Shown piece by piece: positions 24,508 to 44,157 of a stretch of 64,000 nt of DNA. The position numbers and the translations under genes are program-made. A model generated the notes under the pieces. The model did not search any database. It saw only the letters and a program-made list of their open reading frames with translations, and was not told where the DNA came from. Origin of the DNA: a virus (lineage: Duplodnaviria; Caudoviricetes); IMG/VR virus record IMGVR_UViG_3300028048_000063, positions 1-64,000 of that record; one strand, written 5' to 3'. Numbering within the stretch: position 1 is the stretch's first letter; every line of letters begins with the position of its first letter.

Positions 24508-25676
24508 TTGTTTTCTACCTCCTTAAGTGTCTCTAATAACTTATCTATATCTTTAACAGTTGTATATTTTGTGAACGAAACACGAATTGTGTTTCTAATT
24601 TGCTTCTCTGTACGTCCCATTCCTACTAAAACATGTGATCCATTGAAACCACCTTTGGTCTCATCAACCTCTTCTGTGCAAGCAGATCCACCTGCAACAG
24701 CAATTTCTTGTGTTCCAAGTACTGAAGCAAGCTTATCATAATCACACATATTAGAGCAATCGAGACTTATAATATTTTTTTGGTCTGGAACTATGGTCAA
24801 TTTAATTTTTGGAAATTCAAAAATCAACCTCTTCATTAAGTAATTGTATAAATATACATAATGTTGTGCATAATCTGTAGCTTTATACATTTCTTTAACT
24901 GCAGCTGCTGTTCCGACAATTCCTGCAACGTTTGAAGTGCCTCCTCTGCGACCAAATTCTTGAGATCCTGCATTAATGAGAGGCATTGGACGATCCTCTG
25001 GATCACAAACCAGGATACCAACACCCGTTGGTCCGTAAATTTTGTGTGCAGAAAATGTTAAATATGTCGCTTTTGGGAAAATTGTTTTCAAACAAATGTT
25101 TGTACCACCATATCCTACACTTTGTGTGCAGTCAACAAGAGTTTTGATGCCCAGTTCTGCGGCCTTGTCGGAAATTACTCCAGCTTCATTATAGGTTCCG
25201 AGTTCATTATTAACTGAAGATGTACATATAAGGCATGTACTTTCTCTAATATATGGAGCAATAACATCCCATCTTAATCCTTTACTGTCTGGGGTTATGT
25301 AATCAACACAACACCCAAACTCTTCTAATTGCTTACAAGCATTAGTGATTGAGTCATGTTCAAAAGCTCCACAAATAATATGTGTAGATTTATGATCAAT
25401 TAGAAGTTGTTTAAGAGCTGTCATTTTAATAACCCAGTTATTTCCTTCTGTTGCACCAGATGTGAATATAATATGATCTGCAGAAGTTCCTATAACCTCT
25501 GCGATATCCTCTCTGGCGTCTTCTACGGCCACGTGAGCTTCGATACCATAATCATGGACAGATTGACTGTTGCCAACAAAACCGTCTGTTAAAAACGGTT
25601 TCATGGCGTCTAGTACAACTTTACTTATTGGAGTGTTTGCTGCTCCGTCTAAATATGTTTCTGCTTTTACTTTCAT
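24504..25676 (-). CDS. iscS: cysteine desulfurase (IscS/NifS family)
   Basis: YLDGAANTP, FTSGATEGNN, VNNELGT, SAHKIYGPTGVG (PLP Lys), GGSACT (catalytic Cys), IRVSF. Confidence 0.92.
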   Translation of the reverse strand: MKVKAETYLDGAANTPISKVVLDAMKPFLTDGFVGNSQSVHDYGIEAHVAVEDAREDIAEVIGTSADHIIFTSGATEGNNWVIKMTALKQLLIDHKSTHIICGAFEHDSITNACKQLEEFGCCVDYITPDSKGLRWDVIAPYIRESTCLICTSSVNNELGTYNEAGVISDKAAELGIKTLVDCTQSVGYGGTNICLKTIFPKATYLTFSAHKIYGPTGVGILVCDPEDRPMPLINAGSQEFGRRGGTSNVAGIVGTAAAVKEMYKATDYAQHYVYLYNYLMKRLIFEFPKIKLTIVPDQKNIISLDCSNMCDYDKLASVLGTQEIAVAGGSACTEEVDETKGGFNGSHVLVGMGRTEKQIRNTIRVSFTKYTTVKDIDKLLETLKEVENK

Positions 25677-26016: not shown

Positions 26017-28419
26017 TTAATGTTCTTTTTTATATAACTCATATAAAGCATCCTTGATCCAAGTTTGCTTTACTTTAATATTGCTTACTCTTGTAGCTTG
26101 ATTTATAGCTGTCGGTTGACCTATCAATGCGCAGTACTCACGAGCTCTCGTAATTGCTGTGTATAACCATTCTCTCATAAGTAGTGGGAATGCACTATTA
26201 TCTAAAGCAACAATAACATAACGTGCCTGAGATCCTTGAAGTTTATGACAGGTACAAGCATATGCTAGCGAGATATCACCCCACTCGTCTCTTGGAATTA
26301 AGATCTGGTCATTGTCGTTTAACTCAATAATCATGTTTTCGTAATCAATATCTACAATATGTCCCATATTACCATTAAAGATTGCGACTTCTTTTCCGTA
26401 AATATTTCTGGCATGATAATTGTTCTTTGTGACCATAATTCTGTCGCCAGGTTTATATGTAACTTCAAATCTTTGTCCGCCATCGCTTATCTCGATCGTT
26501 ACACCTTTCTTTTGTTCTGCATTTACAATAGCTTGAACTTCTACATTAAAATATCTACAGCTATTCATACCTTTAGAACGAACAGGAACAACAATCTGGA
26601 TATCATCTGCTGGGATCTTTTTATTATAATATAAGTCTTTAAATTCTTCAAGAACTTTTCCATGAACTATTGCAGCTTCAGCAGAACTTGTTAGTTTAAA
26701 GTCTTGCAATTCACCACGTACCTCAGATCCTGCGAAATCACTCTTTACGATAGACTTACCTTCACAAATGTGAATAGATTGTGTAATAATACCACTTTTG
26801 AGTGCTTGTCTTTGTATGACGGTAAGTGTATTTGTAGGTATGTATCCAGATTTGATACAATCGCTGAGAATATTACCAACAGAGATAGGTGGCAATTGTT
26901 TAATATCTCCCAACATAATAAGTTTGCTACCCTTACGAATACTTGAAATTAAAGATAAGAACAATTCTTCCCCAACCATTGAAGTTTCGTCCAAAATAAT
27001 TACATCTTCTGTAAGAGGATTGCTTTCATTTCTGGCGAAACGTTCTTGATCAGGTAGATAATTTAATAATCTATGAATTGTCTTTCCTTCTAACCCCGTG
27101 TATTCTGTTAACAAACTAGAAGCTCTTCCTGAGAGTGCGCATTGAGCGACTTCATAACCGTAATGTTCAAAAATACGAATTAAAGGTTTTAATGTACTAC
27201 TCTTACCTGTACCAGATTGTCCTGTAAGGATTGCTACGTTATTATTTAGAATACTCCAAATTGCTTTCTTTTGTTCAAAGGTATATTCAAATCCTTGTTC
27301 TTTTTCGGTTTCAGCAATAATCTGATCGCAGACTACCTTGTCAAAACTGAAAATACTTGGAGCTTTTTTGAGTCTCTTTAATTGATCAACAATTTTTTGC
27401 TCTACAACTCTCAAGCTAAATAATCCGATATAACCATTATCTTTTTCATAATAGAAGTTAGGAAGTTTAAGATCTTTTTCACCGAACTTAATCTTCTTAT
27501 ATAGCTCTTCAAAGCCCTCTGGGCCCACTGTGCGCTCTTTTATGAGGTTAAGAAGGTTCTCCTTCGAAATAGGTGCACATACGTTTAAAACGTCTTCTAC
27601 GAAGCCACGGATCTGTACACGAGAGTTTCCTTCTTCGTTAGCCATCTTATCAAGTCTGTATAAACAGTATGCCATACATCTTTCTGGACAGTCTGTGGTA
27701 AACCCTTGAGCTAGGGCTATTCTATCTGCTCTTTCCCAACCATAGCCTTTGGCTAATTGAATTAATGAATAAGGATTTGTTTTAATGATATCTACCACAA
27801 CATCTGGAGATCCAAATTGTGCTATCAGTTTATCAATAGCATTTTTTGTAAGACCATATTCTTTTAATTCGATATAAGCTCTACTACTATTGACGTTTTC
27901 TGAATATTTGGCACACATACGGTTTGCCGTTACAGGGCCAATACCTTTAATCTTTGTTAAAGCCCCAATGTTCCTTTGGAATAATAAATCTACAGGATTA
28001 TCATATTCAGAGAATAGTAATTCAACTTGTCTATCTGTCATGAAGAAACTGAAGAACTTTTTTTGGTCTTCTGGATTGTCCATGTTGTAGGCTAGGTGCA
28101 TATCTAAACATTCATATTGAGGACCCCACTCAGGATCAAACACTAATTTTCCTGTGAAGATATACTCCATATCATATTCAACTTTAGGGAGATTTCCTGT
28201 GACAACAATGCTTCCATCATAAGCAGAAAAACACTCAACCGTGAGTTGTCCTTCTAAAACCTCTTCTACGTTTAGTAATACGATCGCATATTCTCCTGAG
28301 TTGTGAGGTTTATTTTTTGGATAACGATAATTATGCAAAGTTACCTTTGCAGTTACTAATTGGTTGAGTAATTGTTTTGTTTCACTCATTAATGGTTTTG
28401 CTAATCTTTTTTTTGTCAC
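26017..28419 (-). CDS. recD2: RecD2-like SF1B helicase
   Basis: HhH IKGIGPVTA, GQSGTGKS, TIHRLL, DETSMV, GDIKQLPPI, AYACTCHKLQGSQ, LYTAITRA; GTG start at 28419 after AAGGAG. Confidence 0.9.
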   Translation of the reverse strand: MTKKRLAKPLMSETKQLLNQLVTAKVTLHNYRYPKNKPHNSGEYAIVLLNVEEVLEGQLTVECFSAYDGSIVVTGNLPKVEYDMEYIFTGKLVFDPEWGPQYECLDMHLAYNMDNPEDQKKFFSFFMTDRQVELLFSEYDNPVDLLFQRNIGALTKIKGIGPVTANRMCAKYSENVNSSRAYIELKEYGLTKNAIDKLIAQFGSPDVVVDIIKTNPYSLIQLAKGYGWERADRIALAQGFTTDCPERCMAYCLYRLDKMANEEGNSRVQIRGFVEDVLNVCAPISKENLLNLIKERTVGPEGFEELYKKIKFGEKDLKLPNFYYEKDNGYIGLFSLRVVEQKIVDQLKRLKKAPSIFSFDKVVCDQIIAETEKEQGFEYTFEQKKAIWSILNNNVAILTGQSGTGKSSTLKPLIRIFEHYGYEVAQCALSGRASSLLTEYTGLEGKTIHRLLNYLPDQERFARNESNPLTEDVIILDETSMVGEELFLSLISSIRKGSKLIMLGDIKQLPPISVGNILSDCIKSGYIPTNTLTVIQRQALKSGIITQSIHICEGKSIVKSDFAGSEVRGELQDFKLTSSAEAAIVHGKVLEEFKDLYYNKKIPADDIQIVVPVRSKGMNSCRYFNVEVQAIVNAEQKKGVTIEISDGGQRFEVTYKPGDRIMVTKNNYHARNIYGKEVAIFNGNMGHIVDIDYENMIIELNDNDQILIPRDEWGDISLAYACTCHKLQGSQARYVIVALDNSAFPLLMREWLYTAITRAREYCALIGQPTAINQATRVSNIKVKQTWIKDALYELYKKEH

Positions 28420-28471
28420 TTTTATCTCCTTATTATTATAGTAAAAAAAGAAGGATCTTTTTCCAATATAG

Positions 28472-28500
28472 ATTATACTGGATATGATCCCTCTTGTCAA
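28472..28500 (-). promoter_or_regulatory. phage promoter family member
   Basis: TTGACA-17 nt (ending ATCCAG)-TATAAT. Confidence 0.85.
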
Positions 28501-28511
28501 CTAAATATAGA

Positions 28512-30035
28512 TTATTTTGGCTTATTCCTTTTATATCTTATACTTAGACTGCCATCTGTTGAGACCCCTTCGATCTTTCCGACACCTTGTGTAAACGGAG
28601 TTTTAGTAGATCTAACATGGAACATATTATCTTTTCGTACGCCATAAACAATTAATTTGCTTCCTCGTTTAAACCATGACTCATCAAATACAGTTTTCTT
28701 TTTTGTTTCAGGATCTAATTTACTAAGCTTTGCATTGAAATCTACAAAAGTCTTAGCAAAGAATTTAGCATCTACGACACCATCTGGAGTTAGCAAGCTA
28801 ACTGTATGACGAATGTTGTTGTTCCCTATTACTGTGCCAACAATGTTGCAGTACTCTGTATTCTTAGGATCTTCTGGTAAATCAAAGAAATTACGGACAT
28901 CATACTTTTGTTTATTGACGTTCCCTAATTCATGACCGCTATGATAATAACACATAGTTTCCATCTCCCAAGTAGATGGTGTACCTAAACAATATTTATC
29001 AATGAGCTTTTGTTTGAAGTCATCTTGTAATAATTGTTGATATGCTAGTCTACCACTCTCTGAATTGAAGAAATCCATCAATGGTTTGATACTTTCATCA
29101 TAAACACGTGTAAAGCTAGCTTTTTTCATGAATACGGAGTTATCTGGAAGATCTCCATATTCGCTCTTTGATAAACTAAGTTTAGATTTGAAGAATGTAT
29201 TGAAAAATCTAATACAAGCTTCTTCAGTTAAGACATATCTATTCGAATTTTTATCGAATTGATTTTTATCTATATATTGTTTAAACTTAAACATTCTAAT
29301 TTGTTCATTGAACTGTGGAATGTCTATACTTAGTTGTAATGCTTTTTTGATCTGTACAGATGTTAACTTGTCTTTTAATTCGATCTCTTTATCTGCCAAG
29401 ATTTGTAAATAACGATTAATAATATACATACGAGTATTATTTGGGTAGAGGGAGTCGAAACATCCTGCCTTGATCAACCCAAGCATTTGGACTGGAGTAG
29501 GGTTAACTTTTTCGACAAAGTCCTCAACCTTTTGATATGGTCTGCCCTTAAAGATCCTGTCTAAAAGATCTGGGTTAACCACATTAACTGTTTGTAAACT
29601 ATATAATATGCTATTATTTTTAACGTCTGGAATAAAGTCAACTTGAGCAGTATTAATGTCTGGGAGTTCTACAATAATGCCTTTATGTTGAGCGTCAGAA
29701 ATAGCTTTTGCAACTTTTCTGTAATCAGGAGCAGATCTTTTAACTTTTACACCATCTGAAGATTCTTCAGACTCTTCTTCGTCTGTTTCTTCTTCTATGG
29801 TTTCTTGTTCCATTTCATCTTCTTCTGTAAGCTCCTCTAAGCCATCTGTGTAGTTCCCCGCATTAATACACAAACATGCGCATTGCCAATAAAGTTGATT
29901 CCAACGAGTTGCTAGATTCATTTCTTGTAATGCGATAAGGCTATAAGGTAATGTATGATTCAATGAGAAAGAATACCCCAATTGAGGTTCTATACAACGT
30001 TTCCATACATAATCTAAAAATTCTTTCCTTGCCAT
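28512..30035 (-). CDS. dnaE: DNA polymerase III alpha subunit, C-terminal half of a split gene
   Basis: LGYSFSLNHTLPYSLIA (= GYGFNKSH motif), ELPDIN, LIKAGCFDSL, WEMETMCYYHSGHEL, OB fold; own RBS and promoter. Confidence 0.88.
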   Translation of the reverse strand: MARKEFLDYVWKRCIEPQLGYSFSLNHTLPYSLIALQEMNLATRWNQLYWQCACLCINAGNYTDGLEELTEEDEMEQETIEEETDEEESEESSDGVKVKRSAPDYRKVAKAISDAQHKGIIVELPDINTAQVDFIPDVKNNSILYSLQTVNVVNPDLLDRIFKGRPYQKVEDFVEKVNPTPVQMLGLIKAGCFDSLYPNNTRMYIINRYLQILADKEIELKDKLTSVQIKKALQLSIDIPQFNEQIRMFKFKQYIDKNQFDKNSNRYVLTEEACIRFFNTFFKSKLSLSKSEYGDLPDNSVFMKKASFTRVYDESIKPLMDFFNSESGRLAYQQLLQDDFKQKLIDKYCLGTPSTWEMETMCYYHSGHELGNVNKQKYDVRNFFDLPEDPKNTEYCNIVGTVIGNNNIRHTVSLLTPDGVVDAKFFAKTFVDFNAKLSKLDPETKKKTVFDESWFKRGSKLIVYGVRKDNMFHVRSTKTPFTQGVGKIEGVSTDGSLSIRYKRNKPK

Positions 30036-30078
30036 GTTTTCTCCTTTAGGGGCGTGATATTTCACACGCCCTCTATAT

Positions 30079-30107
30079 ATAATACTGGATTATTAAATAA
30101 AAGTCAA
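30079..30107 (-). promoter_or_regulatory. phage promoter family member driving the DnaE C-terminal half
   Basis: TTGACT-17 nt (ending ATCCAG)-TATTAT. Confidence 0.8.
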
Positions 30108-30115
30108 GTTTTATT

Positions 30116-33100
30116 TTATGATAGAGATGATAATGTTACCTGAGTAAATCCGGTTACAGATGCATATGTAGTGTAAGATGACCATCCGCTATCATTTTGA
30201 TAAGTAGATAATAATGTAGATGGCACCGATACAGCAACTCCAGTAGTAGTGGAATTAACAAAAATATTTGAACGGAATTGGATAGAAGCACGACGAGATG
30301 TTTGCCTTAAGCTTAACGAACGGAGATTAGTTGATTCAAATAAACCTGATCCTAATGCGGCGGTATTTGATGCTCCAGGTTCCACTAATGTACTATAAAT
30401 TGTGACACTTTGTAAATATGAACATCCTTTAAAAGCATACACACCAAGTGAAGTAGATATATTAGTATTACCAATAGATATTGTTTGAAAAAGGATGTTA
30501 TTACAATTCTGGAATGCGTGTTCTCCAATAGAAGTAACGTTGGATATATTAAAACTACTTATTGTTGAACAACCGTAAAACCCGTAAGCTGGCACTGTTG
30601 TTCCAGTTATAGTAACAGTATGTAAATCATCAGGCAAGCATGCCGAATAAGAATTTCCATCTGATCCTTGTTGCGTAATTATAGTACCCCCTGTATATTG
30701 AGTCGAGCCAAAGATGTAACCAAATAATTGTTCACTTGCGGTAGATGTTGTAGCAGATTTTCCAACAAACGGTAATGTTATGGAATAAATTTCTGGACAA
30801 TTATTAAAAGCCTCACTACCAATGCTAGTAACTGTGCTTGGAATAGCAACTGCAAAATCATCATTCATTGCATGTAAACTTGTACAGTTTTTAAATGCGC
30901 TATCTCCAATGCTTTGGATTGAAGGTAAAATGAGTGAATCCACTCTATTACAACCATAGAAAGCATTGTTTCCTACAGTTGTAATAGTGTTTGGTAATGT
31001 ACAAGATCTAACTCCTGAGCAATTATAAAAAGCACAATCTCCTACTGCTGGTACAGATCCCTTAACCTTAATAGTATTTAATATAGAACATCCATAAAAA
31101 GCCCCATACATAAGTTTACCGCCAGATACGGTAACGCTACGCAAATTGTTTGGAATATAATACCCCCTCGATCCTGTTGACGAATAATATTGATATGTTA
31201 AGGTTCCGCCTTGGTATTCATCTGTACCAAAAAGATAACCGAACAAAGTGTTTTCGCTTGCTTGTGTCGGATTTACCGAATTACCAACATAAGGTATTGT
31301 GAGTGTTCTAAGACCACTACATCCATTTAAAACGGATCCTAATATTGTTGTAACAGACGTTGGTATTGTTAAAGATGTGAAATGAGTACAATTTTTAAAC
31401 GCTCTTGTACCAATCTGTATAACCGAATTTGGAATATTAATATTGTTGAGGTTAGAGCAGTTAGCGAACATTTCTTCGCCAATATTCGTTAAATTATTTG
31501 ACAATATAGCAGTTGTTAAATTACTGCATCCTCTAAACACACCTGTTCCAACGGTTGTTATACTATTTGGTAACGTAATGGAAGTTAATCCAGCACAATT
31601 TTCAAATATACCATAAGGTAATGATACGACAGAGTTATTTAATGTCACGTTGGTTAAACCAGACGCAGTAAAACACATATCTCCAAAACTTGTTATATTT
31701 GATAATATAGATAAAGAGGTTAATGCTGCAGTTTGATAGAATGCTTGTTGACCAAAAATAGTAATGGTTGATGGTAAAACTATATTTGTTAAACCAGTGC
31801 AGTATGCAAAAGCAGCGTTGCTAACAGTAGTGGCGTCTCCGTTTATTGTAATATGTGTCACATGTGAACACCCTTGGAAGGCGTGTGAAGTTATATCTCC
31901 TCCAAGAACCGTAATATTTGTTAAACTCAGAGGTAAATAATAATTAAATCCGGATAATGTTACTTTATAACTTTCAGAATATTGTCGCCCCCCAAAGATA
32001 TGCATAAAATAACGACCACTACTAGTTTGGTCTGCTCCAATAAATGGTATTGTAATGTTTGTTAAACCATAACAACCGCTTACACAAGAACCCCAAATAT
32101 ACGTTAAAGTAGATGATGACAATATTAAGTTTTGAATATGAATACAATCATAGAACGCCCCATAATATATTTTTAAAGCACGTGTAATCTCAATTTGTGT
32201 TAAACTATCAGGAATATAGTATGTTTCAGAATACACAGAAGTAGAAGAACCACCATCGTAATAAACTTGTGTTACAGGACTACTACCAGTGTAATTATTA
32301 GTACCAAAAATATACCCAAACAAAGTAGATCTACTTGCGCTTTGTTCGTTTTTGTTTCCACCAACAAATGGTAATAATAACGTCGTAAGTTTGCCACACC
32401 CATAGAAAATTCCTTCAGCTAGTGTAGTAAATGTGCCATCAAGTTTGACCGATGTAATTTCACTACAGTTATAAAACACATCAGAACCTACATTTGTTAA
32501 GTTTGGTAAGTTAAATGCTGCAACCATTTTACTACAATTGTAAAACACCTTATTAGGTAATTGTGTGATATTATTATTTAAATGTGTCGTAGTATTACCT
32601 ATTTCCATACCCACTATTTCACTACATCCTTCAAAAGCGCTTTCGCCAATGCTTGTTATATTTGGTAAATTAAAACTTGATGCTAATAAACCACAATTTT
32701 TAAATATTCTTGGATTAATAGTTGTAATTGTAGAACTGATTGTCGCTGAAGGTATTTTAGCACATCCGTCAAAGGCGCCTTCTCCAATACTTGTCATATT
32801 CAAATTAAATGAAGAAGTTAAATTCGAACATCCGTAGAAAGCTTCTGCAGGAATTACAGAAATTTTTTGACTATTTAATGTTACTGTAATTAAACTCGAA
32901 CAATTATAAAATACTCGTGCCCCTAATGTTGTTACATTTGACAAAGTAAATTGTGAGGTAAGTAATGGACATTCAGCAAAAGCTTGTTCCTCGATATTTT
33001 CCAAATTATAGTTCGATATATCGATAGAAGTTAAATTTGAACAATGATAAAAAGTTTTTTTCCTAATTACAGTATGTACTCCGGCTATGGTTATTTCTTG

Positions 33101-36100
33101 GATATTTTGACAATTAGAGAAAGCTCCATACAACATTATTGAATTTGCTCCTGCTATATTTACGTATTTTAATGATGTTGGTATGTAATAATCTGCGGTT
33201 TGACTGTCTGACCATGCTTGTGTCGTAGGAGATAATGCACCTATATAACTAGTAGATCCAAAAATAACGCCAAACAAAGTATTGGCAGAAGCAGTAGAAG
33301 AACTTCTTTGAGTACCGACAAATGGTAACAATAATGTTTCAAGCTTACCACACCCATAAAAAGCGCCAGCTTCTAATGTCATAAATGTACCATCAAGTTT
33401 TAGTGATGTAATTTCACTGCAATTATTAAATACACCAGAACCAACAGTTGTTAAGTTATCTAAATAAAAATCAGATTCTAGTTTTTGGCAATTATAGAAA
33501 ACCTGATCTGGCAATGTTGTAATTAGTGTGTTCTTGTTTACACCATTGTGATCAGTATTAATATTGATAACTTCAATTTTTTCACAATTATAGAAAGCAC
33601 GTGCTCCAATATTAGCTAGATTAGGAAGTACAAAATCAGATTCTAATTTTACACAATTATAAAATACATTTTCTGGTAGTTTAGTAATATATGTATTGCT
33701 AATGCCATTTCCATGTGTGTCGATATTTGATATTAATTCACAATTGTAAAAAGCGCTTGCTCCTATTTTTGCTAACTTTGGTAACATAAAATTAGACGTA
33801 AGTTTAATACAATTATTAAAAGCGCCTGTACCTATACTTGTAAGATCATTTGAATTAGTAATTGATATAGTTGTTAATTTTTTACAGTTATCAAAAGCTC
33901 CTGATCCCACCCTTGTTAGGCTACTGTCAAAAACTACTTCAGTAAGATTTGTATATTTTAAGAATGATCCATCTGGTATAATACTATCATTTTTAATTGT
34001 AATTTTACGTATATCTGATGGAATATAATAATTAGATGAATATATCTCACCATTATCAGCATAGAATTTTAATGTTGATACGATATTATGATCAGTATCA
34101 ACAAGATTTTTACCAAATATATTACTAAATGGCACTGCGTATTCTTTTTTAGATATTCCTTCGGATATATTTTTATCGCTACTGCATGATGTTGTTATTG
34201 TTTGTAAGGCAGTATAATTACTTAAAGCACTTTGACAAATAAATTTTGTATATTCATTGATATCAACGCTATTAATATCTTTACGTTCTGGGTTTGTTGA
34301 TACCAAAATCATATATGGACTATTTCTACTACCGATATATCGCAATCCCTGGCCGTCTTCCGTTAATTGTAATTTATCACATTTTTCAAATGCTGAAGTA
34401 CCTACACTTTTTAATCTATTAGTTGTATCTGATAATGAAATTTTAATTAATTCTTTTTGATTGTAAAATGCGTATGGCTTGATTCTTGTAACTTCAGGTA
34501 TCTCTATATCTGTCTCTGTGCCTTCATAAGCGACAACAGATGATGTGTCATAATCTATCCCGCCATTACCATCTGATTGACCGTATATAATAAAATCTGA
34601 GTCTGTCTTTTTTAATACACCTTTATCCTTGTCTTGTGAGTCTAAGACAACCTCTGCTGCGTAATATCCAAGATATCCTAAAGTAGGACTTCCTAATAAC
34701 AAAGCAGCACTATCATCCACAGATTCTGCACCAAGATTTGGAGCATATACCTCAACAATATTAAAGCAACAAGCAAAACTATCTTCTTTAACAACTGTGT
34801 CTTTGTCGAAATATACTTCAATTTTTCTTAAGTTATTGCAATCATAAAAAGCTTGTTCTCCAATATACTTTACAGTAGCTGGGATCATAACCTTATTATT
34901 ATTAAAATCATCTGCATCGATATCTTCTACGATACCGAGGCTTCTACATTGCAAGAATGCTCGATCACCGATATATGCTAATTGACTGTTGGATGGATCA
35001 ATAACTATTCTTTTTAATTTTATACAGTTATTAAAAGCACCAGTGTCTATTTTTGTAACAGTGTTTGGGATAGTCGTAGTTTCCAATTCGTCGCAACTAG
35101 AACATATGTTTGCAGGAATTTCTGTTATACCACTACCGAAAGTAATTGACTTTAGACTCTTGCAATCCTCAAAGCATCTAGGCCCGATATATTTTACAGA
35201 ATCAGGAATAACTATATTAATAAGCTCTGCGCTATTTTTAAATGCTTCACTACCGATATATACAACAGTGTTTGGTATAGTAATTTCTGTTAAATTACAA
35301 TCATAAAAAGCATTATTTAAAATAAATTTTGTAGTATTAGCCAACTCACCATTGTAATTACCTAATATTGTTTTGTTTGTGTCTAGATATCCTTCGTGTT
35401 TAGTTTGTATATCTACAGCTACGGCTTGATAATTACCTGTCATTAATGTATTGACCGCTTCATCAACACCTATTAAAATTTTATTAGTAGCACCAAGATA
35501 TTTACCCATGCCATCTCTACTGATATTTAAATTACTACAACCAGAGAAAGCATCACGACCCACATAATTAATGTCAGCATTATTATTGATATTTACTGTC
35601 GTTATACTTAAATCGTTAATAAAAGCATAATCAGAAATATCACTGTTAATTAAAACAGTTGTAAATGGAGTATCTGATGTATTACATAAATTCTTACTAT
35701 AATATACAGGATTAGAATATTTTGATTCAAATTTAATCTGACCCCAATTTAGAATATTTGGCGTCCTTACCATTCCACCTTGTGTAAAACTACAATTTAA
35801 GAAAGCCCCGTTTTTAACCTCTTTAACGTTAGCTTTTAATGTAAGTTTTTGGAATCGGTAACATACAAACGTAAACGATTGAATGACTTGAGCATTAATC
35901 TGGATATCGGATCCAAAGTTTATAATCTGACAAGTACCCTGTTTAACGCTTAATGGGTTTGCATAATAGTTTTCAAATTCAATACTAGCCCATTCATCTA
36001 CTGTACCTAAATATTGTAAATTGGTAGTGATTTTACAGTGCTTAAAAACATCTTTTTGTATTTTTTTTAATTTTTTATTTAATGTTAAACTAAATAAAGT

Positions 36101-36298
36101 TGTATAACTTTGTCCTGTTGGTGGATCAAAAGCTCCGGAAGCGATGATTTCTGTGTTACTATTAATAGTAACCGATGTATGCTGTGGATCTAAGTTTTCA
36201 TACTTTTTAAGTATCAAATATAAATTATCAGATGTACCAAGATATGTATATTTTGCGTAACTTTCTTCAACCTCAGTTTCAATTAAAAGTTGATCCAT
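30116..36298 (-). CDS. BspA/TpLRR-type leucine-rich-repeat protein, 2060 aa
   Basis: Dozens of LxxIxIPxxVxxIGxxAFxxCxx repeats punctuated by LPFVG...LFGYIFG...YYIP modules; no obvious signal peptide. Confidence 0.92.
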   Translation of the reverse strand: MDQLLIETEVEESYAKYTYLGTSDNLYLILKKYENLDPQHTSVTINSNTEIIASGAFDPPTGQSYTTLFSLTLNKKLKKIQKDVFKHCKITTNLQYLGTVDEWASIEFENYYANPLSVKQGTCQIINFGSDIQINAQVIQSFTFVCYRFQKLTLKANVKEVKNGAFLNCSFTQGGMVRTPNILNWGQIKFESKYSNPVYYSKNLCNTSDTPFTTVLINSDISDYAFINDLSITTVNINNNADINYVGRDAFSGCSNLNISRDGMGKYLGATNKILIGVDEAVNTLMTGNYQAVAVDIQTKHEGYLDTNKTILGNYNGELANTTKFILNNAFYDCNLTEITIPNTVVYIGSEAFKNSAELINIVIPDSVKYIGPRCFEDCKSLKSITFGSGITEIPANICSSCDELETTTIPNTVTKIDTGAFNNCIKLKRIVIDPSNSQLAYIGDRAFLQCRSLGIVEDIDADDFNNNKVMIPATVKYIGEQAFYDCNNLRKIEVYFDKDTVVKEDSFACCFNIVEVYAPNLGAESVDDSAALLLGSPTLGYLGYYAAEVVLDSQDKDKGVLKKTDSDFIIYGQSDGNGGIDYDTSSVVAYEGTETDIEIPEVTRIKPYAFYNQKELIKISLSDTTNRLKSVGTSAFEKCDKLQLTEDGQGLRYIGSRNSPYMILVSTNPERKDINSVDINEYTKFICQSALSNYTALQTITTSCSSDKNISEGISKKEYAVPFSNIFGKNLVDTDHNIVSTLKFYADNGEIYSSNYYIPSDIRKITIKNDSIIPDGSFLKYTNLTEVVFDSSLTRVGSGAFDNCKKLTTISITNSNDLTSIGTGAFNNCIKLTSNFMLPKLAKIGASAFYNCELISNIDTHGNGISNTYITKLPENVFYNCVKLESDFVLPNLANIGARAFYNCEKIEVININTDHNGVNKNTLITTLPDQVFYNCQKLESDFYLDNLTTVGSGVFNNCSEITSLKLDGTFMTLEAGAFYGCGKLETLLLPFVGTQRSSSTASANTLFGVIFGSTSYIGALSPTTQAWSDSQTADYYIPTSLKYVNIAGANSIMLYGAFSNCQNIQEITIAGVHTVIRKKTFYHCSNLTSIDISNYNLENIEEQAFAECPLLTSQFTLSNVTTLGARVFYNCSSLITVTLNSQKISVIPAEAFYGCSNLTSSFNLNMTSIGEGAFDGCAKIPSATISSTITTINPRIFKNCGLLASSFNLPNITSIGESAFEGCSEIVGMEIGNTTTHLNNNITQLPNKVFYNCSKMVAAFNLPNLTNVGSDVFYNCSEITSVKLDGTFTTLAEGIFYGCGKLTTLLLPFVGGNKNEQSASRSTLFGYIFGTNNYTGSSPVTQVYYDGGSSTSVYSETYYIPDSLTQIEITRALKIYYGAFYDCIHIQNLILSSSTLTYIWGSCVSGCYGLTNITIPFIGADQTSSGRYFMHIFGGRQYSESYKVTLSGFNYYLPLSLTNITVLGGDITSHAFQGCSHVTHITINGDATTVSNAAFAYCTGLTNIVLPSTITIFGQQAFYQTAALTSLSILSNITSFGDMCFTASGLTNVTLNNSVVSLPYGIFENCAGLTSITLPNSITTVGTGVFRGCSNLTTAILSNNLTNIGEEMFANCSNLNNINIPNSVIQIGTRAFKNCTHFTSLTIPTSVTTILGSVLNGCSGLRTLTIPYVGNSVNPTQASENTLFGYLFGTDEYQGGTLTYQYYSSTGSRGYYIPNNLRSVTVSGGKLMYGAFYGCSILNTIKVKGSVPAVGDCAFYNCSGVRSCTLPNTITTVGNNAFYGCNRVDSLILPSIQSIGDSAFKNCTSLHAMNDDFAVAIPSTVTSIGSEAFNNCPEIYSITLPFVGKSATTSTASEQLFGYIFGSTQYTGGTIITQQGSDGNSYSACLPDDLHTVTITGTTVPAYGFYGCSTISSFNISNVTSIGEHAFQNCNNILFQTISIGNTNISTSLGVYAFKGCSYLQSVTIYSTLVEPGASNTAALGSGLFESTNLRSLSLRQTSRRASIQFRSNIFVNSTTTGVAVSVPSTLLSTYQNDSGWSSYTTYASVTGFTQVTLSSLS

Positions 36299-36337
36299 AT
36301 TTTTTCCTCCTATTTTTTTATTTTTTAATTTATATAT

Positions 36338-36365
36338 AAAAAACCATATTAGTTTTAATATGGTT
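36338..36365 (-). terminator. putative intrinsic terminator after the DnaE N-terminal half
   Basis: AACCATATTA/TAATATGGTT 10-bp stem then a T run on the minus strand. Confidence 0.6.
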
Positions 36366-36377
36366 GAATTTTTTTAT

Positions 36378-38768
36378 TTACTTATCTTGCAGCCCTTTTC
36401 TAAAGAAATCTTCTTTTAGTTTTATCAACTGCTTTTGTTGTTTTTTTGCTATAGCTTTACGGGCAGCATTTGCTTCGCCAAGCGTAAATCCACAGACCTG
36501 TGGATCCATTAATATCCTCATGAGAACTTCCTGGGAACCAGAAACACCGTTAGTACCTTGTAAATACTTTTTCATAATCTCTATCTCATCATCTGTAAGT
36601 CCTTCCTCGTACATCTCTAATAACCATGCCTCAGGATTATCTCTGAAACGCACATAACGATCGATAGGTTGTTCTATATCTTCTGTTTGTAGCCTCATGA
36701 TCGAGTTAACTTCTGCTAATTGCATAACATTTTCTGGTCTTGCTTTTTCAATACAAACAGCCCCAACCTGTGTATCAAATTGGAATAGATCACTAATCTT
36801 TCCTTCTGCTGCATTTTTCCACATCTGTGGATCCTTGTATTCAAGTACGTCTGGATGTATGTATTTATCATACGTTGCACGTAAACTTCCTTGCCATTCA
36901 ATTAAACCATCTCTTAATAAAAGCTCTAAGCATTTAGCTATTTTCGATTGTGCGTTTGTACGCAATACGTCCATTTTTAATGCACCCATATCATCAGAGT
37001 CATGCATATTAAATGCTGTAATCTTAACTTTATTAGGAGCTCTCATTAAACTGTTTTGAGCGAGATAACCATCATTAAAAACATATAATGCACTAGCATG
37101 TATACTTGCATTTGTAGGGATACCTTCAACCTTTCTAATAGCTTCGAACAAACCAGGATATGCTCTAATTTTATCTTCAAATCCTGCAACAGCTTCAAAA
37201 CCCTGCTCTTCGTCTCCATATAAACATTGATCTAAGGTATAAGAATTACCTCTATGAAAAGGCACAAGGGCTGCTAAAGCTTGCATTTCATCGCTATTAT
37301 ATCCAAGTCCTCTACCACAACATAAAATAGCTGAACGTAAGGACTCGGTCTTGAATGTTGCGCAGTTGAGAACATTATCTTCTCCGTAGGTTTTTTTAAG
37401 AAGTTCTGTAATATCTTTTGTTCTCTCTGGTTGGAAGTCTTCATCCACATCTGGAAGCTCTACTCTTTCTTTATTTAAGAAACGCCAATATGGAAGATCA
37501 TACTGTAAAGGATCTGCTTGAGTAATACCTAATAAATAATTAATATAGAAACCACAAGCGCTACCTCTGCCGACTCCACATAAGCTTACATTCCAAGCTA
37601 TGTCTACTATATTTTTTGTAAGATTTAGATAAGCACTTAGCTTTTGACCTAGACGTGTACTAATATAATCTAAAATGTCTAATTCGGTATTTATTCTATC
37701 TATTTTGATATCATCAAGTACTACATTCTTATTTTTAATACCCTGTTCGATTTGATACATTAAATATACATCTTGTTGGTCATCGCTCTCATAAAACTTC
37801 TTAATCATCGGATATTTTCCATTTTCGCAAAAGTTATATAATATTTGCGATAAAGTAAATTCAGGAATTTTAATTTTTGGAACGATAGTACCGTGTCTAA
37901 AATCAATATTTTCTATCTGATCGGCAATTTTACAAGTATTTTCAAAAGCTTTTTTGATTTGGTCTTCTGTTAATCCGCCAGCCATTAAAATAGTTTTCAT
38001 TTCATCTTCTGTCATGATATAAGTAAAACGATAAAACTTTTCAGTTTCACGATCTTTACTTTGTCTACTATTCAAGAAAGCTGAGTGAATACCAAAATCA
38101 TTTTTATCTAAATAATGACTATCTGTTGTAACGATATATGGAATGTCATAATGTTCCGCCATTTTAATTAATACACCGTTGACTTTAATTTGTTCTTCAT
38201 TATCTGATGGTTGTAATTCTAAAGAGAAATTATCTTTGCCGAAGACTTTAATACACCAACGTATAAACTCGTTTGCTTTACTTACGTCATGTTCTAAGAT
38301 TTTATTAGGTAAGAACCCACCCAAACAAGCTGTAGATCCAAAAATGTGTCCTGGGTTAGATCCTATAACCTTCTCGATATCTTGATATGTTGTTGGAACT
38401 CTCATAATGCCTTTTTCAAAATATCCACGTTCCCATGCGATAGAAGATAATTGTTTAAGTTGGTACCACCCTTCTAAATCTTTAGCCAATAAGATAAAAT
38501 GATAATACTTATTAGTATTACCTATCTCACTTTCATCAATAAGATAAATTTCATTTCCAAAAATAATCTTAAAATCTGGATTTGTGTCTTTAATTTTATC
38601 TTTCGTTTTAAGTATATCTATCGCTGAAGATAGAGCTTCATGGTCTGTAAAAGCTATACCAGAAAAACCAAGAGATATGGCTTTATTTACCATATCTTCT
38701 GGTCTGTTTATACTATCTAAAAAACGAATATTTGACGAATACGTGTGATTATGAAGTGATGTAAACAT
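36378..38768 (-). CDS. dnaE: DNA polymerase III alpha subunit, N-terminal half (PHP plus palm/thumb/part of fingers)
   Basis: HNHTYSS, FTDH, TTDSHY, GVGRGSACG, RFLNKERVELPDVDEDF (catalytic Asp pair), KMDVL, LFQF, ARKAIAKK. Confidence 0.92.
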   Translation of the reverse strand: MFTSLHNHTYSSNIRFLDSINRPEDMVNKAISLGFSGIAFTDHEALSSAIDILKTKDKIKDTNPDFKIIFGNEIYLIDESEIGNTNKYYHFILLAKDLEGWYQLKQLSSIAWERGYFEKGIMRVPTTYQDIEKVIGSNPGHIFGSTACLGGFLPNKILEHDVSKANEFIRWCIKVFGKDNFSLELQPSDNEEQIKVNGVLIKMAEHYDIPYIVTTDSHYLDKNDFGIHSAFLNSRQSKDRETEKFYRFTYIMTEDEMKTILMAGGLTEDQIKKAFENTCKIADQIENIDFRHGTIVPKIKIPEFTLSQILYNFCENGKYPMIKKFYESDDQQDVYLMYQIEQGIKNKNVVLDDIKIDRINTELDILDYISTRLGQKLSAYLNLTKNIVDIAWNVSLCGVGRGSACGFYINYLLGITQADPLQYDLPYWRFLNKERVELPDVDEDFQPERTKDITELLKKTYGEDNVLNCATFKTESLRSAILCCGRGLGYNSDEMQALAALVPFHRGNSYTLDQCLYGDEEQGFEAVAGFEDKIRAYPGLFEAIRKVEGIPTNASIHASALYVFNDGYLAQNSLMRAPNKVKITAFNMHDSDDMGALKMDVLRTNAQSKIAKCLELLLRDGLIEWQGSLRATYDKYIHPDVLEYKDPQMWKNAAEGKISDLFQFDTQVGAVCIEKARPENVMQLAEVNSIMRLQTEDIEQPIDRYVRFRDNPEAWLLEMYEEGLTDDEIEIMKKYLQGTNGVSGSQEVLMRILMDPQVCGFTLGEANAARKAIAKKQQKQLIKLKEDFFRKGLQDK

Positions 38769-38803
38769 AACATTCCTCTTGTATTTATTATTTTTATACT
38801 AAT

Positions 38804-38832
38804 ATTATACTGGATATTATTCTAAAAATCAA
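38804..38832 (-). promoter_or_regulatory. phage promoter family member
   Basis: TTGATT-17 nt (ending ATCCAG)-TATAAT. Confidence 0.8.
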
Positions 38833-39308
38833 CTATTTTGTTCAGGTTTATAATATGTTCTAAAAACTAATATATCGTCTTCTAAACTTTCATCAACACC
38901 TGGACAGAAGTTTAAAAAGTCTTGATTAAGACTATTTAAAACACGTGGGTTTAATTTTTTAGCATAATGTCTTTCGTTTTTCCCGTATGTTTTTGTGTCC
39001 CAGAATACATGATTATCTTGGTCTATGTCTAAGGAATATTCTGACCACATTGTTTCAATAAAATCTTTGATTTTTTGAAGTGTTTTAAAGTTACATGCCA
39101 AATTATCTAATGGAACGATATTCTTTCCTTCCTCTGCTTTATATTTTTCAATAAAATCAGTCATACCACATGCCCTATAAAAAGAGATCATGCTACAGAT
39201 AGGGATGTCATCAGCATCTTCTTTTCGCCAATCTTCTAGTTCATCAAAGTCGAGGTCGATTGTTGCTCTAACTTTTTCTTCAAATAATACTTTATCTTTT
39301 TCTTCCAT
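38829..39308 (-). CDS. hypothetical protein
   Basis: AAGGAG RBS, 159 aa. Confidence 0.75.
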   Translation of the reverse strand: MEEKDKVLFEEKVRATIDLDFDELEDWRKEDADDIPICSMISFYRACGMTDFIEKYKAEEGKNIVPLDNLACNFKTLQKIKDFIETMWSEYSLDIDQDNHVFWDTKTYGKNERHYAKKLNPRVLNSLNQDFLNFCPGVDESLEDDILVFRTYYKPEQNS

Positions 39309-39317
39309 AATATCTCC

Positions 39318-40313
39318 TTATAACTCGATCTTCTCTTCTTCTGTTTTATTTTGTGCTTGTTTCTTGAGTTCATGATTCATGATACTCTCGTGATTTTCCA
39401 TACCTCTCCATTTATGAGATACGGCGTGTGTCTTGTTCTCACGTGTCCATAAAGAATAATATGGGCATAAGTTTTTACCAGCCTCTGGTTGATTTGGATT
39501 TGTTGGACAGAAATTACACCAATGACATAGTGGTGATGGGTTTGGTTCGTAATTACCCGCATCAATACCTGTGAATATTTCGTCTAACTTTTTCATACCA
39601 CGCTGCATAAATCCTGGCGTACCAGCTTTTTGTTTTGTTTGACAGAATGGTAAATCATAAAAACATTCTATATCTTCATATGGAACATTTAATGTTGTAT
39701 GCAGAGCATAAACATATACTACAAATTGTAATGGTGTCACAAGCTCTGCGTCTTTAAATAACTTGCCCTTTGTTTTAATATCTTCTACGATGTATTTACC
39801 AGTGTTCTTATTATAGAAAATTCTATCAATAAAACCACTGAGAGTATAACCATTATACGTTACTGAGAAGAATTTTTCCATATCATAGACTTCTAAACCA
39901 GGATTATCTTTAATATAATTTTCTAATCTATAAATACCAAAGTTTAAATAATCCTCTACCTTTGTATTATAAGAAACGCCATTGTCATCTGGTTCGTAAA
40001 ATTCTTCCTTATATTTTTCTTTTAAGATGTTTATTCCATAAACACCGCCCTTTGTATCATATGGTGATGTCTTAGGAATATTGATGTTATAAAATTCGTC
40101 TTTCAATTGGTCATAGTTTATTTCTTCATGATTTTTTAAGCTTCTAGCTATGCTTTCTTCTATATAGTGCAATGTCGTACCTAAATCTGCTGCTAATGAA
40201 TCAACATTAACAAAATGACCGTCAAGGTATGAAAGCTTGTATTTCCATGCGCAGCTATTGTAAACGTTTAGTCGTGAATACGAATATTTAACTGGCTTTT
40301 TATATTCTGCCAT
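39318..40313 (-). CDS. Cas4/RecB-like PD-(D/E)XK exonuclease with probable Fe-S cluster
   Basis: SYSRL...C, GTTLH, E, GFIDRI, EDIKT, QFVVY, CHWCNFC...C. Confidence 0.85.
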   Translation of the reverse strand: MAEYKKPVKYSYSRLNVYNSCAWKYKLSYLDGHFVNVDSLAADLGTTLHYIEESIARSLKNHEEINYDQLKDEFYNINIPKTSPYDTKGGVYGINILKEKYKEEFYEPDDNGVSYNTKVEDYLNFGIYRLENYIKDNPGLEVYDMEKFFSVTYNGYTLSGFIDRIFYNKNTGKYIVEDIKTKGKLFKDAELVTPLQFVVYVYALHTTLNVPYEDIECFYDLPFCQTKQKAGTPGFMQRGMKKLDEIFTGIDAGNYEPNPSPLCHWCNFCPTNPNQPEAGKNLCPYYSLWTRENKTHAVSHKWRGMENHESIMNHELKKQAQNKTEEEKIEL

Positions 40314-41445: not shown

Positions 41446-44157
41446 TTAAAAATCAAAACCGATATCATCATCTTCATCCGAGGTACCTGTATAAGCATTC
41501 TCGAATTTCTCTTCCTTTGTACTATCTAATAAGATTTCAATGTTAGTATCTTCAATAGGAAGAATAATACCTTTACTATCTGTCACGAAGCAATCTGTCC
41601 ATTGGCATACGGATCTATCAAAGTATCCATATAATTTAATATTTTGATAACTACCTGCACGAACTTTATAAATATTAATAACAAAGTTTGGAGCAAGCTC
41701 AAATCCTCTAGCGCAATAACTATCAATAATCGACTGATCAATTTCTCTAACAGGCATAAGAATACAACCAACGTCTACCTTATCTGCTAATGATTTTGCA
41801 GATCTTAAATAAGATGCGTCTAGATCTTTAGCATTCTTATAATCACCTGATAATTGCGAAGCTGTCCATATATAAATACCCAATGTTTTAGCTGCATCTT
41901 TTAATGCAGATGAGAACATAAGTAAAATTTGGTCAGTTCTAAGTCCTTGTACTTTTGTTTGTCTAGCTGCAGATGATGTTATTTTTAAAGTTTCACCTAA
42001 GTAGTCAAATATTACATAATTGACGTTATATAATTGTTTGTATTTTTTAATAATGTTAATAATATCGTTAACATCATAATTGGTAATACTTACAAAATAT
42101 AGATTAGATTGTTCAATTAATTCTATAGCTCTATCAACTCTTTCTTCTTCTCCTGGGGCATATCTACCATCTTTGATATGGTTTTCAGGAACACCACCAA
42201 CGAAAGCCATCCACATTTGTTGACATTCATTTTCTTCTAACTCAGTGGAAATAACTAATACGGACTCTTGCATATTTGTCTTTATCCATGCCTGACGTTG
42301 TACGTCATAATATTCAGGTATAGCAAGATGGCAAGCTTCCGAATTACCGATACGTGTATTGTGCGTAACGATAAAATTCTCCGTCAAGAACAAGTGTTCG
42401 TTATTATCCACTAAGAAACAAGTCATGTCCTCCTGATATCCTAAATCCTCAATTTTAATCATTGGATTGCTTCTATGTTTGTGCGTACCTTTATTATTTT
42501 TAGACTTTTCATACCATGATTGCATTTTTTGGCGTTTTAAACTAAGTTTGAATAATCTATTTTTTAATTCAGGACTACCCATAATTTGTACTAAATATCC
42601 TATGTTAGTGGATTTATGAGTATCAACAAAAATAGATGTTGAGAACCCTAGACTTTGGGCTAATTCAGTAACATCATCTCTTAATTGAGGACTAATTGTA
42701 AAGAAAGATACTCTGCCTCTTTTATCAACACAGCCATCTGTATCTAATAACCCATTTAATAATTCAAATCTATTGTCAATACTATCTTCTAAATATACAC
42801 GCGGTATAAATTTAGTCTGGCTATTTGTATTAATAAGATCTGGATGTTCTTTTAGGGCGTCTCTCACCCAAACATTTTTACTTCCTTTTTTACGGTTAAT
42901 ATTAGAACTTATATCACTAAGATTGTTAAAACTAAAAGTCCATGCATAAGTAGTTTTATGTTTTTTAACTGACCAATTCATTGTGTTACCAATAATAGAA
43001 GGTAATTCTTCATTTGCAGAAGAAAATTCAAGCCCTTTATTAGATTCTTGTTCTTTAAGACAACCGTCTCCTAAAAGTAATCCTAGGATATATGGTGGTA
43101 AAAAGTGCTGTTTTGGGGAATACTCAAGAGCTTGTTGTTGTGGTACCAATATGGTGTATTCACCATTTTGACGTAACGGTTTGTCGTTCATAATCTCTTT
43201 TAAGGTCTTTGTATAAAATATCCTGTCTTCTACAGATTTGATACGCTGACCATTAGAATTATAACTCCACAAATGTTCATCACTACAACGACATGTTCTT
43301 CCGTCTCTAAAAGTTATTTGGTATACTTCTTGTTTACCTTGTGGATATACGCCCAATACTTTAGTAGGATGTCCTTTGGCATCAAATAAATAATCTCCAA
43401 CTTTAATATCTTGTACATTTTTCCATCCTACAGTAGTTGGTATTCTACTACTATTTGGTAACGCTTTGCCGTACCCACTTGGAGCTGACTCTAAGAATAA
43501 ACAACCTCTACGTTGCCCACGTACGATTGTTGTAAGCTTTGGAGAGACTAATGGTAAACCCATTTCAGGAGTTTGTTTAAATCTTTCTTTTAACTCTCTT
43601 AGTCCATCTCCAGCCTTATTTTCAACACGGTCGCTATTACTACCATATTTCTCTTTTGCTAGGATTATCTTTGTTTCTTCTTTCAATAAAATATCGTTTA
43701 TGCTTAAAGCATCAAAATTCTCATACATTCTAGCACTCTCTACTGGATCCACAATATCAGGATCATAGATATCTCGTGTATCAATTCCTTCAGCTTTTAA
43801 GTTATTTATTAAACTATATTTTTTTAGAGTTTGATAATAATAATCAAACTTCTTTTCATCATAAATATTGAGAGCATTCTGTATATACTCTACACCCTTG
43901 TTGTTGCAAAAAACTTTATACTGTACAGTATATTGTTTTAGAAATTGATCTATGTCTATATAGTCAATTTTTTCCATTCCCTTTTTCGCCAAATATTCGA
44001 TAGCCCCGAACAAAATCTTATGAAATTGTTCTGGAAAATCTTCTATTGAAAAGCTATAATTATTATTAGCAAACAATAATGGATTTTTAATTAGTGCCGC
44101 TAATACATGAATTATCGCTAATTTATTGGAAGCTGCATTGTTAACTTCTTGCGACAT
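41446..44157 (-). CDS. dnaB: DnaB-like replicative helicase containing an intein
   Basis: Walker A APSGYGK|T split by the intein, ISTEL, IFDYL, TASQLS, KSLADKVD, KVRAG. Confidence 0.9.
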   Translation of the reverse strand: MSQEVNNAASNKLAIIHVLAALIKNPLLFANNNYSFSIEDFPEQFHKILFGAIEYLAKKGMEKIDYIDIDQFLKQYTVQYKVFCNNKGVEYIQNALNIYDEKKFDYYYQTLKKYSLINNLKAEGIDTRDIYDPDIVDPVESARMYENFDALSINDILLKEETKIILAKEKYGSNSDRVENKAGDGLRELKERFKQTPEMGLPLVSPKLTTIVRGQRRGCLFLESAPSGYGKALPNSSRIPTTVGWKNVQDIKVGDYLFDAKGHPTKVLGVYPQGKQEVYQITFRDGRTCRCSDEHLWSYNSNGQRIKSVEDRIFYTKTLKEIMNDKPLRQNGEYTILVPQQQALEYSPKQHFLPPYILGLLLGDGCLKEQESNKGLEFSSANEELPSIIGNTMNWSVKKHKTTYAWTFSFNNLSDISSNINRKKGSKNVWVRDALKEHPDLINTNSQTKFIPRVYLEDSIDNRFELLNGLLDTDGCVDKRGRVSFFTISPQLRDDVTELAQSLGFSTSIFVDTHKSTNIGYLVQIMGSPELKNRLFKLSLKRQKMQSWYEKSKNNKGTHKHRSNPMIKIEDLGYQEDMTCFLVDNNEHLFLTENFIVTHNTRIGNSEACHLAIPEYYDVQRQAWIKTNMQESVLVISTELEENECQQMWMAFVGGVPENHIKDGRYAPGEEERVDRAIELIEQSNLYFVSITNYDVNDIINIIKKYKQLYNVNYVIFDYLGETLKITSSAARQTKVQGLRTDQILLMFSSALKDAAKTLGIYIWTASQLSGDYKNAKDLDASYLRSAKSLADKVDVGCILMPVREIDQSIIDSYCARGFELAPNFVINIYKVRAGSYQNIKLYGYFDRSVCQWTDCFVTDSKGIILPIEDTNIEILLDSTKEEKFENAYTGTSDEDDDIGFDF
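42358..43464 (-). mobile_element. 369-aa class-3 (Ala1, WCT) intein with LAGLIDADG homing endonuclease
   Basis: Starts ALPNSSRIPT, block B SDEHLW, LGLLLGDG and LNGLLDTDG, block F MTCFLVD, ends IVTHN, +1 Thr. Confidence 0.9.

Follow-up and report, generated by a model that had tools for sequence, protein, structure and literature searches.

A full-length phage DNA polymerase III alpha encoded by two genes 6.3 kb apart

Genes in pieces and split DnaE proteins

In cyanobacteria, the DNA polymerase III (Pol III) alpha subunit DnaE is encoded by two separated genes, and intein fragments on the two products ligate them through protein trans-splicing at the equivalent of the GY/SF junction, between the second and third residues of the GYSF motif. 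Other genes in pieces are known from phages. The nrdA gene of Aeromonas phage Aeh1 is split by mobE into nrdA-a and nrdA-b, which are active as separate polypeptides; the T4 topoisomerase genes 39/60 are split by mobA; and the products of the PolB genes 43A/43B of Aeromonas phages 25 and 44RR co-purify and polymerise (PMC2988022). Whether the endonuclease caused such splits or invaded existing ones was left open, and invasion was argued for gene 43 of phage 25 (PMC2988022). Fractured genes carry split inteins, and a homing endonuclease separates the two parts (PMC2677866). For the group 2.2 jumbo phages, two distant genes have been predicted to encode a minimal Pol III alpha module (Iyer et al. 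2021, PMC7824862). Here we describe a phage of the Caudoviricetes (IMG/VR record IMGVR_UViG_3300028048_000063) in which a full-length DnaE is encoded by two genes, an N-terminal half (N-half) and a C-terminal half (C-half), with a gene for a leucine-rich repeat (LRR) protein between them.

The window, by which we mean the whole stretch of DNA analysed, is the first 64 kb of this 150,079-bp record, which is rated complete. The locus consists of three consecutive open reading frames (ORFs) on the minus strand, and 6.3 kb separate the two polymerase genes:

36378..38768, minus strand: DnaE N-half gene, 796 aa (ORF and translation), ending ..FFRKGLQDK with stop TAA; PHP domain, palm and first part of the fingers
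30116..36298, minus strand: LRR cargo gene of BspA type, 2060 aa; Pfam LRR_5, E 2e-228, in 16 stretches
28512..30035, minus strand: DnaE C-half gene, 507 aa; start MARKEFLDYVW, GYSFSLNH motif, acidic linker, helix-hairpin-helix (HhH) and C-terminal region

The end of the N-half and the start of the C-half quoted in the original prediction, a note made from the letters of the window alone, agree exactly with these translations. The closest named relative of the pair is YorL of Bacillus phage SPbeta (SPBc2), which has the same domain order of PHP, palm, fingers, HhH and C-terminal region in one chain of 1305 aa. Identity to YorL is 40% for the N-half, and 31% for the C-half over the C-terminal 500 residues of YorL. 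The N-half aligns up to nt 109395 (query residue 792) and the C-half from nt 109390 (query residue 7) onwards; the window proteins abut on YorL with no gap or overlap of more than two codons. What is a single chain in YorL is here cut in the fingers loop, and the pieces lie far apart.

We read the locus as encoding the phage's only DNA polymerase, a YorL/DnaE-type enzyme of the C family made as two polypeptides. We estimate the probability at about three in four (0.74) that the two genes are a genuine and long-established replicase of two non-covalently assembled chains, that it belongs with the genes in pieces associated with homing endonucleases, and that its gap is used for cargo. Like the T4-type genes in pieces, the locus has an essential enzyme encoded as two ORFs, each with its own start or stop, and a gap that holds an endonuclease gene in some relatives and nothing or other DNA in others. 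Unlike them, it concerns a C-family enzyme, involves LAGLIDADG rather than HNH or GIY-YIG endonucleases and extends over a wide clade with many changes of state. In T4-type cases function is retained by non-covalent assembly, whereas the activity of the present pieces is predicted, and the gap in the window holds the LRR gene rather than an endonuclease gene.

The locus shares with the cyanobacterial split DnaE the presence of two separated dnaE genes and a break in the same part of the fingers, but the break lies 21 residues further upstream and there are no intein residues; the product should consequently stay in two chains. Like the jumbo-phage module, a Pol III alpha-type unit is predicted to be rebuilt from two stand-alone proteins. 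The jumbo-phage module lacks PHP, HhH and C-terminal domains, is cut between the NTP-binding and the Mg/template-binding subdomains and accompanies a PolB main replicase, whereas the present enzyme is full-length, is the sole polymerase and is cut in the fingers. An SPbeta-like Staphylococcus phage (KT429160; locus L162, 3040-7437), where DnaE is annotated as dnaE_2 (482 aa) and dnaE_1 (828 aa), has yet another, third type of break in this family; that break is about 300 residues further upstream, with a spacer of about 460 nt. In the open-access text, no paper was found that describes a full-length phage DnaE cut in the fingers loop. The arrangement is new for full-length C-family polymerases, and the kind of split is itself known; because the split nrdA, topoisomerase and PolB genes of T4-like phages are precedents, it forms no new category.

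Two genes and a divided fingers domain

The N-half matches the Pfam domains PHP (PF02811, E 1.7e-26, residues 5-187) and DNA_pol3_alpha (PF07733, E 4.7e-48), and holds positions 13-162 of the 166 in the fingers profile DNA_pol3_finger (PF17657). The GYSFSLNH motif forms residues 20-27 of the C-half, so the fingers are complete but shared between two chains. The C-half also matches HHH_6 (E 3.8e-12), and a phmmer search with it against PDB sequences gave no match. The N-half aligns to residues 7-787 of Taq Pol III alpha and 13-730 of the Escherichia coli enzyme, with its catalytic motif PDVDEDF on Taq PDIDTDF and LKMDVL on LKMDFL; D440, D442 and D600 are invariant across 18 relatives. It is the only DNA_pol3_alpha match in the 150-kb genome, across which searches for PolA and PolB found neither.

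The interruption itself, and nothing further, would suggest that the LRR insertion recently destroyed the polymerase, which would now be decaying while host enzymes replicate the phage. We give this explanation almost no weight, given two intact ORFs with catalytic motifs in a genome with no other polymerase. Differences between strains fall nearly all at third codon positions, 20/20 of those listed in the N-half and 18/19 in the C-half by our own arithmetic from the reading frames, which argues for purifying selection on both halves. The arrangement recurs in a second strain, from another study, and the nearest relatives that lack the LRR gene are already split at the same codon.

The stretch is present in cattle-gut metagenomes of several studies, and the contigs bear on the possibility that an assembler misplaced the LRR gene inside dnaE. 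This gene has internal repeats, and contigs from short reads break off or jump inside it. Its junctions with the polymerase halves are nonetheless bridged in three studies: contig X1, probably from the source run, spans the whole stretch; contig X3 (9626 nt), from a different study, holds the C-half, the LRR gene and the N-half in the same order and spans both junctions; and contig X2, from a third, covers 35191-36456 and bridges the junction between the N-half and the LRR gene. The chance that the arrangement is an assembly artefact is, in our judgement, negligible. Two other cattle-gut strains have a strongly divergent or replaced 3' end in the LRR gene (30116-31055, about 900 nt), while their polymerase halves show scattered, silent transitions; the C-terminal LRR region of the protein seems to be hypervariable.

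The original prediction held that the joined halves reproduce a continuous fingers sequence and that neither an intein nor an intron flanks the break, and both statements were borne out. The N-half ends in a variable loop after ..KEDFFRKG. In an alignment with close relatives that are fused, the break maps to a short loop of variable sequence, with ..LKKDFYEKG.. before it and ARKEFLDYVW after it, as in the fused locus L003, which reads ..EKGGQR-ARKEFLDY across the joint, and the junction alignment with these relatives has no residue extra or missing. There is thus no room for intein fragments. No intein Pfam domain was found in either half, in a search that detects inteins in the N-halves of relatives and in the DnaB of this phage. 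No Rfam intron or ribozyme was found at 28000-39400 on either strand, at the gathering threshold or at E<=1; the sole Rfam match in this interval, a CRISPR repeat model at E 0.66, was taken as noise. The break lies 21 residues upstream of GY/SF. The original prediction had placed the cyanobacterial break about 20 residues further on, and its distance stands; that GY/SF corresponds to the cyanobacterial intein site is a correspondence that we take as given.

These data also speak to whether the two products might be covalently joined after all, through RNA trans- or cis-splicing over the 6.3-kb insert or through a protein ligation that escaped recognition. The halves share a reading frame (38768 - 30065 = 8703, which is divisible by 3), as is expected by chance in one case in three. 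Against joining, both ends align residue for residue to fused forms with no intein-like residues, and the spacers around the LRR gene are only 79 nt and 80 nt long, the remainder of the gap being one intact LRR ORF. The LRR gene has its own Shine-Dalgarno (SD) sequence AGGAGG (36306-36311) and ATG, in a frame that differs from that of both polymerase halves. No contig of the RNA or DNA runs has a joint 36380->30035. These include RNA library X6, assembled contigs of one metatranscriptome that possibly hold DNA, in which contigs identical to the window were present for both halves and the LRR gene, and none joined across the gap. Together with the double stops, frame changes and separate SD and ATG of adjacent-split relatives (see below), these observations make covalent joining highly improbable.

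Each half has its own stop or start and a ribosome-binding site, and the following elements were found around them:

36337..36365, minus strand: AU-rich 10-bp hairpin and U run, a weak terminator-like element 13 nt past the N-half stop
30079..30107, minus strand: promoter-like site TTGACT-17-TATTAT, 10/12 matches, inside the 80-nt spacer between LRR stop and C-half start
30050..30071, minus strand: 7-bp G+C-rich hairpin GGGCGTG..CACGCCC, directly 5' of the C-half ribosome-binding site

The ATG at 30035 is preceded by the SD AAAGGAG (30041-30047), 6 nt upstream, and gives a protein of 507 aa; a GTG at 30065 was rejected as the start. The G+C-rich hairpin (-16 kcal/mol, z -5.7) leaves this SD free and may act as a 5' stabiliser, as a processing site or as the end of the LRR transcript. 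Of the signals named in the original prediction, the ribosome-binding site of the C-half was confirmed. The terminator after the N-half stood in part: the hairpin (-9.2 kcal/mol, z -3.3 against shuffles) and the U run are present, but the element is weak and was not called by a terminator scan, which requires 3 G-C pairs. On these signals it is plausible that the C-half is expressed separately, and we infer that it may have a transcript of its own.

Finally, association of the two proteins was modelled by complex prediction, with N-half residues 330-796 and the whole C-half, an 18-row alignment for each, three runs and three controls. The interface score ipSAE was 0.87, 0.85 and 0.87, against 0.00 for the best control. 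Contacts agreed between runs to at least 83%, and the predicted local distance difference test (pLDDT) score of the partner was at least 81. The pass mark used was reached by 58/80 solved complexes and 2/110 mismatched pairs, which are rough counts, our own alignments having been supplied. C-half residues 1-58 pack on N-half residues 605-795 in the model. These predictions are consistent with a mechanism in which the first ~60 residues of the C-half would complete the fingers fold begun by N-half residues ~605-795, and we infer that the two proteins could reassemble in this way into an active non-covalent heterodimer.

Conservation, exchange and gap contents among relatives

Among the best 120 relatives of the N-half, 52 are split (45 N-halves of ~795-840 aa and 7 intein-bearing N-halves) and 66 are fused, and all 52 split forms end at the same loop, give or take a few residues. 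The split N-halves P0005-P0007 are 83-98% identical to that of the window. Of the top 120 C-half relatives with lengths of 278-888 aa, 62 are stand-alone proteins that start MAR.., exactly 19 residues before GYSF. Such stand-alone C-halves reach down to 33-35% identity, and one comes from a Priestia genome. About 200 loci from IMG/VR, JGI metagenomes and GTDB genomes were classified; this set was not de-replicated, IMG/VR and JGI share contigs, and the fused form is in the majority.

In 29 loci of the IMG/VR and JGI sets the halves are directly adjacent, with stop and ATG overlapping. The joint then consists of a stop (often double), a change of frame, an SD within the end of the N-half and ATG GCN AGR, as exemplified by locus L004 (..GAGGAAACATAATAATGGCC). 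Among loci available as DNA, the nearest relatives of the window, at 73% identity, are of this adjacent type with the same break. As they have no LRR gene, the split predates the LRR insertion. The original prediction regarded the split as domesticated rather than fresh, and the recurrence of the same break, the MAR.. start and a separate SD and stop in dozens of relatives down to ~35% identity, most of them without an insert, agrees with that view. These comparisons support the conclusion that the split is old and is common in a large clade of gut and rumen phages.

Two side observations concern the N-halves of relatives. An intein of ~410 aa with a homing endonuclease domain lies near query residue 388 in the split N-halves P0059, P0062, P0063, P0066, P0071, P0116 and P0118, and also in those of L036 (7553-11257) and L192 (7544-11302); one gene can hold both an intein and an intein-free split. 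In L045 (12037), L153 (10030) and L161 (7331) a single in-frame stop occurs within the N-half and the frame continues, which may reflect recoding, sequencing error or decay.

The split and fused forms are intermingled in phylogenies. In a FastTree tree of 132 N-half rows, the split/fused state requires 26 changes, and well-supported branches force 23 of these; with labels shuffled, 44 changes are needed. An IQ-TREE analysis of 55 chosen rows, with the joint columns excluded, gave 19 changes; this set was picked to include discordant neighbours, which biases a shuffle comparison, and the forced-change count alone was used. Pairs of loci show exchange of the two modules: the fused L089 and the split L105 are 51% identical in the N-half and 84% in the C-half, and L021 and L101 are 69% and 94% identical, respectively. 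Recombination breakpoints were located at the joint or within ~140 residues after it. A tail ..TPN is common to split N-halves from scattered positions in the tree, which likewise points to recombination. As far as the sequences tell, part of the state changes is recombination and not repeated mutation. The codon at the M position of the fused forms gave no clear signal as to the direction of change.

The contents of the gap were read from related loci fetched as DNA. A single 330-aa LAGLIDADG_2 gene makes up the entire gap of L105 and L158, and its stop overlaps the C-half ATG. In L192 the gap is 5.5 kb; a 337-aa LAGLIDADG gene again overlaps the C-half ATG, and about 10 small genes lie between it and the N-half stop. 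The LAGLIDADG_2 matches in these three loci have E values of 2e-16 to 3e-13, and the endonucleases are 57-79% identical to each other (57-59% between the L192 copy and the other two). The gap of L036 is 6.8 kb and has about 11 genes; its cargo is homologous to that of L192 (80-90% protein identity), with a 791-aa SNF2-type helicase in addition and no endonuclease. Exactly the same point is thus empty or occupied by an endonuclease, by cargo or by both, and in the window by one giant LRR gene. The hotspot for gene insertion proposed in the original prediction is supported by the cargo found there in the window (6.3 kb), L036 and L192, and the break point appears to be such a site. Searches for an endonuclease remnant in the gaps of the window and of L036 gave chance-level matches only.

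No homolog of the LRR protein was found within 10 kb of dnaE in ~160 related dnaE loci, and its relatives in deposited phages are remote (23-30% identity). A second, far smaller LRR_5 gene is present in the phage's own genome outside the window (G000:C1:81950-82453, minus strand).

Other, more distant relatives are interrupted at GY/SF, 21 residues on, by HNH genes (L032, L114) or GIY-YIG genes (L040, L044); L043, L184 and others are likewise interrupted distant relatives. L159 and L129 were rejected as same-site splits, since their break lies ~30 residues upstream, within the RK..AKK motif, and a start codon is missing from the downstream part. The insert of L159 is a LAGLIDADG_3 gene, and both loci are probably intron-type interruptions. 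These two and the relatives interrupted at GY/SF are possibly cases of group I introns.

In the window, the neighbours of the polymerase form a replication module comprising a RecD2-like helicase, a PD-(D/E)XK nuclease, a primase and an intein-bearing DnaB. The DnaB-type helicase gene (41446-44157, minus strand, 903 aa) has an intein-like LAGLIDADG/Hom_end insert at residues ~450-545, and it looks as if an intein is tolerated in DnaB in a phage whose polymerase has an intein-free split. A 12/12 sigma-70 consensus site, TTGACA-17-TATAAT, lies at 28472-28500 (minus strand), just past the C-half stop and before the RecD2-like helicase gene (26017-28500). A class-V aminotransferase gene (24504-25676, minus strand) adjoins the module. 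At 53675-63925 (minus strand) an ORF of 3416 or more aa with a tape-measure (PhageMin_Tail) domain continues beyond the end of the window. Assignment of a host from metagenome-assembled genome labels was dropped, as related contigs are labelled Clostridia, Bacilli, Methanobrevibacter and Bacteroidales, in conflict with one another.

Origin and significance of the split

The free-standing LAGLIDADG endonuclease genes suggest how the split may have arisen. The break falls in a variable surface loop of the fingers domain, and the split is a long-lived two-gene allele, older than the insert, that circulates in a large clade. In the mechanism that we propose, an endonuclease at the site most likely created this allele, or at least spreads it by cleavage and repair. 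The space between the two genes would then be a safe place for extra DNA, such as the 2060-aa BspA-type LRR gene of the window.

The split could instead have arisen without a mobile element, a small indel or point change having made a stop and an ATG in a tolerant loop with neutral effect, and the LAGLIDADG genes and the cargo having settled there later. The 29 loci with an empty gap (not de-replicated), compared with 3 that have an endonuclease, fit such a history, as does the difference of only a few codons between fused and split forms at the joint, and an origin free of mobile elements has been raised for the split gene 43 (PMC2988022). Even so, an identical site and MAR start recur over lineages down to ~35% identity, the ..TPN tail is scattered over the tree, and two separate lineages have homologous endonuclease genes next to the C-half ATG. 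These features are better explained if one allele spread by homing or recombination than if many mutations arose independently, and we regard an origin without a mobile element as unlikely.

Several observations weigh against a non-covalent replicase seeded by a homing endonuclease. Solved structures of single-chain Pol III alpha exist, and the score of the predicted complex may reflect the model's memory of them; it shows fit to a known fold, not binding. The promoter proposed for the C-half in the original prediction did not hold up, its 10/12 match being no better than chance: 59 sites of that quality were found in this AT-rich DNA against 63 expected in shuffles, with no enrichment. Neither expression nor transcript ends can be read from the X6 contigs. 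The genome of the window has no copy of an L105-type endonuclease. Lastly, adjacent-split loci far outnumber endonuclease-bearing ones, by the counts given above, so that the endonuclease may have entered a gene that was split before.

With these points taken into account, we favour the old, non-covalent two-gene replicase with endonuclease and cargo in its gap. The main inferences of the original prediction agree with everything testable here; it did not include the connection with homing endonucleases or the frequency and lability of the split. It is possible, and we offer this as a tentative and rather doubtful extension, that the break is a selectively kept modular joint and not merely a tolerated one. 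LAGLIDADG endonucleases would seed and spread it, the catalytic N-module and the DNA- and clamp-binding C-module would be swapped, for example to match the replication partners of new hosts, and the gap would be a landing pad that places cargo inside the replication operon.

If the two chains do form an active replicase, the locus would represent a natural, intein-free split site in a full-length C-family polymerase, present in dozens of phage lineages. It would follow that a fingers domain can assemble from two chains, which would provide a ready-made split point for engineering, and that ~45% of the closest relatives would be mis-annotated as having a truncated or duplicated dnaE. The locus would also be a well-sampled case of a homing-endonuclease site in an essential gene that became a recombination joint and a hotspot for cargo.

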